A stretch of 27,121 nt of DNA from a virus (taxonomy: Duplodnaviria > Caudoviricetes), in IMG/VR virus record IMGVR_UViG_3300044606_000023, positions 1-27,121 of that record; one strand, written 5' to 3'. Both the position numbers and the translations under genes were made by a program. Below, piece after piece: positions 15,315 to 26,175 of this stretch (position 1 is the first letter of the stretch; each line of letters begins with the position of its first letter). The notes under the pieces were generated by a model, which saw nothing but the letters and a program-made list of their open reading frames with translations, was not told the DNA's origin and ran no database searches.

Positions 15315-17063
15315 TTATGCTACGGTTGCACGTAAGTTAAATAACCAAAGATCATTCAATAACCTTGGACAGGCTCCGAATTTATATCCAACTGTGCAAT
15401 TGAGAGCCAAAGGTCCATCATAGATAGCAGGTCTATAAATAAACGTTGCTGACATATGATCTTGCTCGATATACGCATAGGCTTCCATACCTGTTACAAA
15501 GGTATTATAGACCCTTGCCCCAGCAGCAGAAGCAGCTTCGGTATAAGAACCTTCAGAGGTTACAAAGAATCTCAAATTGCCAATAGATCCCCATTCTGAA
15601 CGGGCATTATTGGATTGAGATGGATAGTTATTCTTATGAATAAATCCCTGTACGTTAGATAACTGTGAAGTCATATTAGTATGAGTAAACGCAATGTAAC
15701 TGTCCCTGACCGGAGCTGTTCCAAAGCGATTCTCCCCTTCTATGTTATCTAAGATCGTATAGGCATTGTTAGACAACAAAGTAGTTGTAACCGCTTCGAC
15801 ATCTGACAAGGTGATTTCAGTTGGATTATCTCCATTTACACCACCTACGCAGTTGATCTGACCTGCTGTAGCAGCTAACATATCTCTGGTAAGTCTATCT
15901 TCTGTTAAACGAAGAGAAACACCAAGCCTTATTGCAGCCTCATTCAAAGGTGCATCTTGTGCCTGTAAAGTTCAATCTGTTACTTTTGTGACCTATTTCT
16001 AGGCGGGGAGTCTTGTTATTCCTCCCTCTATATATTTCTATATAGTCCCGACTATCGCTTCACCAATATTGGTGTCCACTCGCCTTAGTCTGTCAGCCTG
16101 TACATTCAATTTCTTTATGTTATAATGTAAGTATACATTTAACATGGAAGGTACCATATGAAACGTCTTAGTTATATACGTAAAGAATATCCGATTACTG
16201 ACATCGCCTACATGGCAGGAATTATTGATGGAGAAGGAAGTATATATATTGGAAACTTTAGTTCCAACCAACGAACAGGAACGCCGTATTATCAAACAAA
16301 TATAGAAGTTACTAACACAAGCGAAGATTTGATAAAATGGCTTCAAAACACATGGAACGGCTGTTCGTCTAAATATACTAGAAAGCAATTGCCTCATAAT
16401 TCCAGGAAAGATGTCTATAGATGGATAGCCCATGGAGAACTTGTTACACATATTTGTGAACTTATTTATCCATATTCTCAATGTAAGAAAAGAGAAATTG
16501 AAATAATGCTCAAAATGCGTGAAACATACAAGCAAACTGGCATGAAAAAAGGTGAAGGAGCATGCCCTTCTATTCCACAAAACATTCTCGATATTAGATT
16601 GTCTTTGTTTAATGAATTGCGAAGTTTGCATTGTCGTAATTATCTCCCTAAGGACTCTTGAACACTTGGCCCTTGTTGTCTTCGGCTTTACCCGGTAAGA
16701 GTTCCAAGTCAATCAGAGCGGATTTAAAGCAGGCAACGTTACATACCTGCTCGTTGAGTTGTATATACGTCAGTTCAACTCAACTGCTACGGCACGTTTA
16801 CCGTAGAAACTTATCTTTGCATCGATATCAACAGCAGTTAAAGCTTGAGAAGGCGGAGTGACTCCCCCATTCCCTAATGGAACGAGCGCTGCGTTTAATT
16901 GATTATAACGCCGTTGTCTGAGCGTATTGCCCCCATTAGCGGGCATTTTACGCTTTAATGCAGCCAAATTATGAATGAAATTTGGCGTAGGAACACTCAA
17001 TAACTTCGCATTGAACGACTGTTGCACTGGCGAAGGCAGAGTGCTTGTAGTTGTCATAGGCAT
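15315..17063 (-). CDS. Major capsid protein, N4-gp56 family, split into three exons: join(17063..16800, 16770..16745, 15972..15315), 315 aa
   Basis: ATG 17063 with SD GAGG. Exon lengths 264+26+658=948 nt are in frame, giving ...AVDIDAKISFYG|TYIQLNEQV|TLQAQDAPLNEAAIRLG... Family motifs include MPANGGNTL..RRY, EWGSIGNLRF and DGPLA...TVGYK. Confidence 0.9.
16118..16126 (+). promoter_or_regulatory. Extended -10 promoter (TGnTATAAT) for the intron endonuclease
   Basis: TGTTATAAT is a perfect extended -10 consensus, about 30 nt upstream of ATG 16158, with SD GGAAGG. Confidence 0.65.
16158..16661 (+). CDS. LAGLIDADG homing endonuclease (single motif), antisense within the intron
   Basis: DIAYMAGIIDGEGSI motif, IEVTNTS..LIKWL, VYRW and KKRE, all typical of the family. 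Confidence 0.9.
   Translation: MKRLSYIRKEYPITDIAYMAGIIDGEGSIYIGNFSSNQRTGTPYYQTNIEVTNTSEDLIKWLQNTWNGCSSKYTRKQLPHNSRKDVYRWIAHGELVTHICELIYPYSQCKKREIEIMLKMRETYKQTGMKKGEGACPSIPQNILDIRLSLFNELRSLHCRNYLPKDS
16745..16770 (-). other. 26-nt micro-exon 2 of the major capsid protein (TYIQLNEQ plus first 2 nt of V)
   Basis: ACG TAT ATA CAA CTC AAC GAG CAG GT restores the frame between exon 1 and exon 3. Confidence 0.85.
16771..16799 (-). mobile_element. 29-nt coreless group I-like mini-intron (candidate)
   Basis: AAACGUGCCGUAGCAGUUGAGUUGAACUG follows exon U and ends in G. GCCGUAG pairs with exon CUACGGU (U.G at the junction), and loop ACGU can pair with exon-2 ACGU. Precise removal restores the capsid frame. 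Confidence 0.75.
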
Positions 17064-23653: not shown

Positions 23654-23726
23654 AGGCCTTGGATGGACTTGAACCACCGTCCTACCACAAGTTGTGCGGC
23701 CGCTCTACCTGCTGAGCTACAAGGCC
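23654..23726 (-). tRNA. tRNA-like gene (73 nt) with atypical anticodon loop; nominal anticodon AAC
   Basis: Acceptor GGCCUUG/CAAGGCC, UA, D arm GCUC-AGCAGGUA-GAGC, anticodon arm GCCGC-ACAACUU-GUGGU, variable AGGAC, T arm GGUGG-UUCAAGU-CCAUC, discriminator U, no encoded CCA. Confidence 0.8.
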
Positions 23727-23727
23727 A

Positions 23728-26175
23728 TTATGTATTTCTAAAAGGTTTAGGCATGTTAGCTTCTGTACCTTGTAGAATAGCGTTATAGTATCTTTGGTCA
23801 AGCTCTTCGGGTGTTAGAGTATCACGACAACGGGGCACAGATAATGCCAAATAGCGCATTGCATCGGCATAATGCGAACTCCAGTCATGCAATGGCCGCA
23901 AGTTATATACCTTACGTTTACTATCATACTCTTGGTGATACGATTCAAGGGCATGTATAAGATTAGAACACTTTTGGTCTATCCACACACGTGGTAACGT
24001 ACTGCGTACCAATTCGATACCGTCCATAAGATCAGATTTAGGCAACGGTACAAGCTTCAAACCTAACTGCTTAGCCTTCTCAATACGTGATATACCCGAA
24101 CCCCACTCTGTTACCTGTATGTCATGAGGGGCAAAGCATTTACCATAGGTGTACGGCTTAGACTTAATTACATTAACATAATGCTCGAGACCTTCTTTAG
24201 ACCTACTGTAACAATCAATAACATGTATAGTAGTGCCTATAACTTGAAACCATATTATTGTAGTATCATCGGAATAGCCTATGTCCATAGCTAGATGGAC
24301 TTTAAAGTTAGGCTCCCAAGGAACATCAGTTATCCTATTTTCAAGCTTCATCTTATCTAAGTACTTAGCGTAATATGACCCTTCTACACCAGCATCAAAT
24401 GAGCACCAATATTCCTGTTGGGCCATATCTTCAGACATTTCTCCCGATTCTATTTCTTTTTGAATATCTGCTATTGATATATGTTGGCAATCATCAACAG
24501 TAAGTTTACATGAGTACCAATCTTCAGGTGAATTGCGTGCTATCTCATAGAGATTGTAGAACCAGTTATGACCTCGTGGTGTCGATAAAAATACCGTTAC
24601 CCCTAAGTTAGCATTCATAATAGGTCGTACAAGCTGATATGCTCTTTCGTCTGAGAGAGCTGCTTCTGAAAATATAACCATGCGGGGGTTGGTACCTACT
24701 AGCGCAGTATCATAGCTATCAGAACCTATTAATTGGATAACTGAATTGTTATTGAGAGTTATTTTCATTTCACTAATGTTGATACTTCGCACGAGCTCCT
24801 TAGGCAAATAGTCCAGAAACCGTGTTCCGTCTATAGTTATACTGTCGAATATAACTAAACGGCATTGCTTAAAGGTAGGAAGACAATAGAAGTAGTTACC
24901 TACTTTGCGTATAGCTGCACGGATTATAAGATTCCAACCGCATACATCCTTTCCAGAATTATGGACAAGGTAGCCGTTAGCTACAAAGTTATGATTCTTA
25001 GTAGTCTCTATGTCATATAATGGCTCTATAGACCCTGTATATTCCTTCTTGGCTACGCAAGAACGGCAACACCCATTGGTTATATACCTAGGAAATGAAA
25101 AACTAACGAGAGACAGACATTGTTCTTGTTTTGCTTCTTTGCCATATACAGGACCATAAGACAAAAGTTGTTTAACTCCATGGCCTGTAACTTTTATTTT
25201 GTAGTTAGAACCACGTTCACATAATAATTTTTGCGGGACTATGCCGAGTTTACGAAATAGCCAGTACAAATCCCATGCGTATTGCTCACATGCACCGCAA
25301 CTGATAGTGAGCTCGCAACGCTCTTTAAGCAATGAAGTCCTATTGCGTTTTTTGTCATATATTGTTTTGGCTTTGTGGATATATAAAGAACCGTCACAGG
25401 ATATTAATGCTGCAAAGAACCTATATAAAGACTCGTTATCAAGCGTGTACAGTATAGGATGAACAGTTCTTCTCGATTTAGGTATATCAAGTTTATAGTC
25501 TCTGAATAGTTCTTTAACTTTGTTCGGCGTCTCTCCTCCACCTAAAGTATTATTGCTAAGTCCCAGATCGTAACCATTGCCTTTTGCACGTAATATAGGT
25601 TTAATATCGAATAATTTATCAGCAAGATAAGCTACTCTATCTAAAATGACCTTGTTGTTATTTGTAAATTTAGGTTGCTGGTACCCTGCACAATACCCAT
25701 CACTACACATATAGCCTATAAACTCAGCAAGATCAGGATTGTGCACACAGCCTTGAGGTCCATAAACATAGACTTGAAGTTGATTATGTGCTTGCAGATC
25801 TTCTGCTTTCTTCCATGTGACCGCTTCTGTGTTATAGGAATAAGCAAATAAATGATCTCTACTTGTTATAATATCAGGCATTGCATGAGCACTTATTTTA
25901 AGCGTCTCTTTAGGCTCTGTCTTCCATACATTCTTAACCCTATCGGTTTCGAACTCTGTACCGTTCCAAGAAAGTATTAAGTCACCTTCTTGTATATCTT
26001 TAAGAAGCTTAAAAGAACCATCGGCCATTATTATATGCGTATCACCATGTAAACACCGCCTGCACCATAGCGCCAATATCTTGCGATACTTACCAGATTC
26101 AACAGCATTGATGAGCGGTATCTGATATGGTCTAGGCTGAAACTTATCAAGCTTAACTCTTGTTTCCGTCATCAT
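23728..26175 (-). CDS. terL: Terminase large subunit, intein-containing (about 449 aa after splicing)
   Basis: PRPYQ adenine motif, Walker A RR|SGKD, Walker B-like VIFSE, STPRG.NWFY, nuclease MDIG.SD and SHYADAMRY. Confidence 0.95.
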   Translation of the reverse strand: MMTETRVKLDKFQPRPYQIPLINAVESGKYRKILALWCRRCLHGDTHIIMADGSFKLLKDIQEGDLILSWNGTEFETDRVKNVWKTEPKETLKISAHAMPDIITSRDHLFAYSYNTEAVTWKKAEDLQAHNQLQVYVYGPQGCVHNPDLAEFIGYMCSDGYCAGYQQPKFTNNNKVILDRVAYLADKLFDIKPILRAKGNGYDLGLSNNTLGGGETPNKVKELFRDYKLDIPKSRRTVHPILYTLDNESLYRFFAALISCDGSLYIHKAKTIYDKKRNRTSLLKERCELTISCGACEQYAWDLYWLFRKLGIVPQKLLCERGSNYKIKVTGHGVKQLLSYGPVYGKEAKQEQCLSLVSFSFPRYITNGCCRSCVAKKEYTGSIEPLYDIETTKNHNFVANGYLVHNSGKDVCGWNLIIRAAIRKVGNYFYCLPTFKQCRLVIFDSITIDGTRFLDYLPKELVRSINISEMKITLNNNSVIQLIGSDSYDTALVGTNPRMVIFSEAALSDERAYQLVRPIMNANLGVTVFLSTPRGHNWFYNLYEIARNSPEDWYSCKLTVDDCQHISIADIQKEIESGEMSEDMAQQEYWCSFDAGVEGSYYAKYLDKMKLENRITDVPWEPNFKVHLAMDIGYSDDTTIIWFQVIGTTIHVIDCYSRSKEGLEHYVNVIKSKPYTYGKCFAPHDIQVTEWGSGISRIEKAKQLGLKLVPLPKSDLMDGIELVRSTLPRVWIDQKCSNLIHALESYHQEYDSKRKVYNLRPLHDWSSHYADAMRYLALSVPRCRDTLTPEELDQRYYNAILQGTEANMPKPFRNT
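24958..26055 (-). mobile_element. Intein (366 aa) with LAGLIDADG endonuclease in the terminase P-loop
   Basis: Starts CLHGDTHI, block B TSRDHLF, LAGLIDADG-like FIGYMCSDG and FFAALISCDG, ends YDIET..NHNFVANGYLVHN followed by Ser+1. Confidence 0.95.

Follow-up and report, generated by a model that had tools for sequence, protein, structure and literature searches.

The window analysed here is a stretch of 27,121 nucleotides from a virus of the class Caudoviricetes (IMG/VR record IMGVR_UViG_3300044606_000023), and the gene that concerns us lies on its minus strand, where it encodes a major capsid protein of the N4-gp56 family. The coding sequence is interrupted twice. Exon 1 (17063-16800) is 264 nt long and carries 88 codons, the last of which is the GGU of Gly88. 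It is followed by a coreless insert of 29 nt that ends in a G (16799-16771), by a second exon of 26 nt (16770-16745), by a putative group I intron of 772 nt whose terminal G is at 15973 (16744-15973), and finally by exon 3 (15972-15315). When both the insert and the large intron are excised, the exons join into 315 codons and one stop; when the insert is kept, translation ends at 97 amino acids. Recomputation therefore bears out an earlier note on this DNA, according to which the insert must leave besides the 772-nt intron, its retention giving a 97-aa product. That note had also proposed an alignment to intron-less homologs as a check, and here the joined 315-aa protein has neither a gap nor extra residues at the insert site, with 43 distinct full-length matches that are free of gaps. 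The family model TIGR04387 (N4-gp56 capsid) is matched by exon 1, by exon 3 and by an intron-less relative; against a curated cut-off of 60 bits, exon 3 alone scores 81.4 and the intron-less relative 146, while the match of exon 1 alone lies under the cut-off. The relatives come from metagenome bins labelled Babeliales, Simkaniaceae and others, and since these labels disagree we claim no host.

Several other features of the window and of related loci were recorded along the way. An open reading frame of 815 aa on the minus strand (23728-26175), probably the large subunit of the terminase, contains an intein with a LAGLIDADG-like domain, and directly after it on the same strand lies a tRNA gene (23654-23726). 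The related capsid genes (L001-L309) carry introns of at least 190 nt at more than 20 other codon positions, with up to six interruptions per gene. Just 5' of the terminal G, most of the full introns have a conserved AAGUAACAG motif, and the inserts are without it. Two of the loci, L283 and L305, belong to one 76-kb metagenome contig on which the same capsid locus occurs twice, about 38 kb apart; this is probably a doubled assembly of a circular genome.

The 772-nt intron, which we call the partner of the insert, looks by its predicted helices like a group I intron. On the minus strand it offers a P1 with a U.G pair (16752-16745/16734-16727), a P3 (16722-16716/16081-16075), a P4 (about 16709-16704/16669-16664), a P7 (16092-16086/16054-16049) and a P8 (16074-16061), in addition to the terminal G. 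The letters of P7 are identical to the consensus of Rfam RF00028, and the pairs of P3 vary in a compensatory manner among partners. A search of the window with RF00028 gave no match to the 772-nt intron, whose core is split by an open reading frame; among eight loci with compact introns the model matched one, the partner at L100, with an E-value of 4.7e-7 and 40.1 bits, under the gathering cut-off of 50. A strict rule that demands both P3 and P7 was passed by 48 of 64 distinct complete partners, as against 4 of 192 shuffled controls, and 11 of the 16 partners that failed have a full P7 with a looser P3. The reading frame that splits the core runs antisense within the intron, on the plus strand (16158-16661), and encodes a LAGLIDADG-type homing endonuclease of 167 aa by its match to Pfam PF00961 (23.9 bits; cut-off 23.1). 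The labels of this product conflict, because its PHROG match, 5046, is labelled HNH endonuclease. In 36 of the 44 distinct introns at site 96 (for example L025, L032, L041 and L095) the loop of P1 is long (35-71 nt) and holds a conserved CUUUGA, and these introns have a stretch complementary to exon 3, an extended P10 whose duplex mostly reaches -10 to -20 kcal/mol. The window's partner carries the short form of the P1 loop.

The core of a group I intron recognises a P1 helix that bears a U.G pair, binds the terminal G of the intron in P7, and aligns the 3' exon by means of P10. The 29-nt insert, read on the minus strand, presents each of these signals in miniature. Its P1' hairpin has seven base pairs, formed by the end of exon 1 (16806-16800) and a guide within the insert (16793-16787), with the U.G wobble at the 5' splice site; its P10' joins 16797-16794 to the first four bases of exon 2 (16770-16767); and its last base is a G. 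A further pairing, which the earlier note did not contain, is the anchor helix, in which the 3' half of the insert (16784-16776) pairs with exon 2 (16761-16753) flush with the P1 of the partner. The 26 bases of exon 2 hold the target of P10', the target of the anchor and the 5' strand of the partner's P1. Computational folding of a 96-nt region gave three adjoining hairpins, which are the P1' of the insert, the helix between insert and exon 2, and the P1 of the large intron, with a z-score of -4.5 and none of 200 shuffles equally stable. The seven-pair P1', the U.G at the junction, the P10' and the terminal G are all as the note had claimed, and so is its statement that the insert has no room for P3-P9, since P1', P10', the anchor and short linkers use every letter. 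Set beside a self-splicing group I intron, the insert has the U.G P1, the terminal G and the P10, and lacks the P3-P9 core with its P7 G-site; it would thus not qualify as a self-splicing intron, yet it appears group I-like at both splice sites, and we regard it as a putative non-autonomous, helper-tethered variant of the group I introns.

The insert is not peculiar to this genome. A protein-to-DNA spliced aligner, run over 181 loci and the window, placed short inserts after codon 88 in 109 loci, and 74 of these are distinct when their flanks are included; most of the 74 were collected by a pattern that demands the guide motif. They measure 28-41 nt and fall into frame classes of 18, 28 and 28, and all 18 of the in-frame inserts contain a stop codon, which rules out retention of the insert in frame. 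A terminal G is present in 74/74, the aligner having demanded a U before the 5' junction and a G at the 3' end, and a P1' of 5-9 pairs is likewise present in 74/74, most of which had been chosen by the guide motif. A second scan demanded neither the guide nor the G, and all 27 of its inserts (28-30 nt), some of them from phages already counted, have the guide, the terminal G and a partner. The sequences counted throughout are those of related phages, so the permutation and Fisher values given here overstate independence. A P10' of at least three pairs occurs in 73 of the 74, and its mean of 4.73 pairs with the insert's own exon, against 3.82 with permuted exons, was reached in 0 of 2000 permutations. 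The guide base that faces position 3 of exon 2 makes a Watson-Crick pair in every insert, through four pair types (51, 9, 7 and 7 cases), and one capsid insert has no P10' pair at the first position. P1' is nearly invariant at site 88 because the exon codons are fixed. The covariation that the earlier note had asked to see is accordingly present in P10', whereas the P1' of site 88 varies little; compensatory versions of P1' occur nevertheless in L393, in full-length introns at site 88 and in a second family in the portal gene, both discussed below. Two longer inserts at site 88, of 75 nt in L393 (minus strand) and 52 nt in L231, have an extra hairpin in the P1' loop, and L393 combines its compensated P1' with a different start of exon 2. 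We conclude that the insert family is real, widespread and sharply structured.

Could the ribosome itself deal with such an insert? Programmed bypassing, in which ribosomes hop over a stretch of the message, has its examples in T4 gene 60 and the mitochondrial byps, and the size of the insert and the hairpin after its junction do resemble bypass elements. However, matched take-off and landing codons occur within 6 nt in only 1 of the 74 inserts, and hopping would leave both the terminal G and the covariation of P10' unexplained; we consider it highly improbable and have rejected it. Equally improbable is that the insert splices itself as a minimal ribozyme in the manner claimed for the 67-nt PaSSU intron of Phialophora. 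Introns of that type do have a P1, a P10 and a pairing called PM, which links the intron's central part to the 3' exon, that resembles the anchor (PMC3160393), but a P7-like motif pair was found in 0 of the 74 inserts by a simple motif test, a length of 28-29 nt leaves no unpaired room, and self-sufficiency would not predict the invariable partner described next.

For 73 of the 74 inserts, a full group I intron begins 26-86 nt downstream, 68 of these partners having been called by script and five by reading the sequence; the sole insert with no visible partner is in L112, whose contig ends at the expected partner splice site. In a set of loci chosen solely for the likeness of their protein (164 examined, 7 uninformative and 27 duplicates dropped, with L085 excluded for a garbled alignment), 130 distinct loci comprise 17 with insert and partner, none with the insert alone, 17 with the partner only and 96 with neither, for a Fisher p of 3e-12 uncorrected for kinship. 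The site-96 partner was found in 0 of 26 informative insert-free loci that have the same exon signature. The note had also wished to know whether the inserts always co-occur with a full intron, and in every informative case they do. The dependence appears to run one way, as would be expected if the insert needs its neighbour.

It is the anchor helix, however, that offers what we judge from sequence comparison to be the best evidence for the neighbouring core in particular as the catalyst. The exon bases that pair with the 3' half of the insert run right up to the first base of the partner's P1: in 56 of 68 cases a three-base linker follows a six-pair guide and the gap to the partner's P1 is zero, and in the remaining 12 the predicted anchor duplex runs 1 or 4 positions into P1. 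For the 50 inserts with a 26-nt exon, the anchor makes 8.38 of 9 possible pairs, against 6.38 when the partners are permuted (0 of 5000 permutations) and 2.7-4.3 in slid registers, and its third-codon positions show several pair types. The position of the partner varies among four capsid sites, its start lying 26, 48, 50 or 86 exon bases after the insert, and inserts of the four kinds (43, 12, 5 and 1) have 7.0-8.0 of 8 anchor pairs at their own partner's site as against 1.0-5.4 at the other three. Since the anchor pairs at the occupied site and poorly elsewhere, the insert is matched to the P1 of its neighbour and not to a fixed segment of the gene. Taken together, the co-occurrence and the covariation of the anchor establish a physical link to the neighbour's P1, which is not the same as proof that the neighbour performs the catalysis.

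We think it likely that the coreless insert is removed from the capsid mRNA by the catalytic core of its neighbour, acting in cis. Sequence comparison shows where the insert begins and ends, which three pairings it makes, that its geometry is fixed and that the partner downstream is invariable, and from this we infer the chemistry. In the proposed model, stacking of the anchor on the partner's P1 would bring the base of P1' near the short linker that leads into the core at P3, where P1' would dock in place of the partner's own P1. Free guanosine would then cut after Gly88, the P7 site would take up the terminal G of the insert, and P10' would position exon 2 for ligation, with the anchor also keeping the 3' end of the insert near P10'. 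The partner would then splice itself, the mini-intron probably being removed first. The chemistry has a laboratory counterpart, in that a truncated Tetrahymena core is described as splicing P1/P10 pseudoknot substrates in trans with free guanosine, a reaction that needed 10-100 mM magnesium and 55-65 C (PMC2532722).

The main rival to removal in cis is that a group I core acts in trans, whether an excised intron or another intron of the phage, and that the anchor only folds the precursor, for instance to order events or to prevent skipping of exon 2. Cores do act in trans on P1/P10 substrates (PMC2532722, PMC4094466), many of these genes have several introns, and tandem group I introns are reported to undergo exon skipping (PMC10136302). 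Against this, no insert occurs without an immediate downstream partner, though other introns are common in the same genes, and the anchor lies flush at the partner's P1 at four capsid and three portal sites, a precision that would be needless in trans; we regard action in trans as unlikely. More unlikely still is removal by protein, either by a phage or host nuclease and ligase or by an intron-encoded maturase that replaces the core. The partner does often encode a LAGLIDADG protein, and degenerate group I introns of lichens are said to need host machinery (bioRxiv 10.1101/2021.05.01.442275), but inserts also occur beside partners of 195-260 nt, which are too short for a LAGLIDADG reading frame, and the 5' U.G, the terminal G and P10 are the signals that a group I core reads.

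A second family of inserts, reached through a scan for cores of the partner's intron type, lies in another gene, which is the portal gene by its match to PHROG 156. A direct scan of portal genes yielded seven loci with six distinct inserts of 31-55 nt, all ending in G. The portal insert lies at about 901-985 of L431-L437, and further cases are L313, L336 and L394. The P1' of these inserts is unlike that of the capsid inserts and has 6-8 pairs, with different guide letters, and the partner follows after 26, 36 or about 55 exon bases, at three sites. All six distinct portal inserts have the P1', the terminal G and a partner, and their folds put the anchor beside the partner's P1; P10' is short in two of them, with 2 consecutive pairs. 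Among 113 distinct insert-free portal alleles, 111 have no core within 200 bases (one of them cut short) and two have the partner only. A generic signature scan of 162 cores returned L394 as a true new lead, L110 in a shifted register and L091 as what is likely a chance match, and it missed L313, L336 and L393, which were found by eye, so its output is no census. That one design recurs at an unrelated site, where the guide letters differ, speaks for a general mechanism.

Where might a coreless insert come from? In L191, L192 and L248, whose capsids are divergent, site 88 is taken by full-length introns of 724-727 nt, and their P1 differs from the P1' of the insert by one compensated pair. Because these introns share the site, the insert is likely a remnant of such a full intron, from which the core was deleted; a pattern search for a full intron in which a core comes straight after the same guide returned 0 viral contigs. 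On a tree built from 130 capsid proteins, 16 changes are required to account for the 18 rows with the insert, no fewer than under shuffled labels (mean 17.1), and the well-supported branches force at least five changes of the insert by a quick tree method that leaves many branches open. On the strength of this tree we reject a single ancient origin followed by vertical descent.

The window itself points to a more mobile history. Compared with the insert-free L001, it shows 22 differences in 919 exon bases but 5 in the 26 bases of exon 2, and compared with the insert-bearing L004, it differs at 298 of 919 exon bases but at none of the 26 in exon 2; the region was chosen after inspection, so binomial values for this patch are indicative only. 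The pattern points to the recent transfer of a short patch made up of the insert, exon 2 and the 5' end of the partner, and the insert probably spreads in this way, as a DNA patch together with its partner. Over 16815-16690, set against L001, L003 and L004, the window reads as an L001-type gene with a short L004-type patch over the insert, exon 2 and the 5' end of the partner.

That near-identical phages exist without the insert (L001, L002 and runs X1 and X3) might suggest instead an assembly error or a lesion in a dead gene. However, L299, from a separate assembly, has an identical insert and 98.8% identity to the window over 1310 nt, and capsid genes that for the most part show no other damage hold 74 distinct structured versions; the chance of such an artefact is negligible, and we have rejected it. 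Contigs from runs X1 and X3 represent a strain that is about 32 bases shorter here, like the insert-free L001. In X8 the site falls into a gap, and the coverage of X13 is limited to 151 unspliced bases; contigs from these four runs, none of them recorded as RNA, contain no splice joints and have no bearing on splicing. A search for spliced copies, in which 166 exon sets without the insert were compared with 137 that have it, turned up no intron-free counterpart of near identity; the closest insert-free sets, those of L001 and L002 at 97%, keep the big intron and likewise have no bearing on splicing.

Known phage group I introns (RF00028) share with this system the U.G P1, the P10, the terminal G, insertion in a conserved gene and the homing endonuclease as cargo, and the partner would be such an intron. 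Tandem complete introns with a short exon between them, with exon skipping, are described in Twort and in Coxiella, and the orf142 gene of Twort has three introns and a 23-nt exon (PMC10136302). In these described cases each intron has its own core, whereas here one of the two is coreless and anchored to its neighbour's P1. The small degenerate introns of fungal SSU rRNA, such as the PaSSU introns of 63-75 nt and those of Porpidia and Arthonia, are the natural case nearest to the insert, being tiny and having P1, P10 and the PM pairing of the intron's middle with the 3' exon (PMC3160393). In the same source, as far as it is available, they have their own P7 and a terminal U, they are self-splicing and located in rRNA, and no helper intron is named. 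The phage inserts, by contrast, have 28-41 nt (with outliers to 75), a terminal G, no P7, a location in mRNA and an anchor that tracks the neighbour. In spite of the shared P1, P10 and mid-intron pairing, the lack of P7, the terminal G and the capsid mRNA suggest that the insert is not a member of the PaSSU type. Also close are trans excision-splicing (PMC2532722) and the spliceozymes (PMC4094466), in which a core removes a foreign segment by way of P1, P10 and the terminal G, as proposed here, and the shortened Tetrahymena core of Sargueil and Tanner 1993 (cited in PMC2532722), to which the substrate supplies its own P1 and P10. These engineered cores, as described, work in the laboratory and in trans, whereas the phage case is natural, predicted to act in cis and equipped with a built-in tether. 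A search of the literature, with few subscription journals covered, turned up no natural case in which a neighbouring ribozyme serves a coreless intron, and the nearest precedents are the fungal degenerate mini-introns and the engineered trans-splicing cores. We think it likely that the inserts form a natural class of "satellite" introns, coreless modules of P1, P10 and a terminal G that are anchored to the P1 of the next group I intron and turn that neighbour into a machine that splices two introns. Such satellites would have arisen at at least two unrelated sites (capsid and portal), would have had their anchor re-aimed for each helper site, would have spread with the helper, and would lock that helper into an essential gene.

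By definition, a group I intron is a unit that splices itself. If removal by the neighbour is true, the insert and its partner would represent, in a living system, a stage between self-splicing and the use of a separate splicing machine, and would provide a testable model for how degenerate group I remnants are removed elsewhere. With a compact partner, as in L004 (32-nt insert, 227-nt partner), the whole system takes about 300 bases and is thus within reach of test-tube assays. Its order of guide, three-base linker and anchor also suggests a simple design rule for having one ribozyme cut out, in cis, a short segment of choice. The inserts escape both gene callers and Rfam, and therefore capsid and portal genes of this kind are probably misread as broken. 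The arrangement would also explain how an essential gene could come to hold a selfish intron that can no longer be removed.
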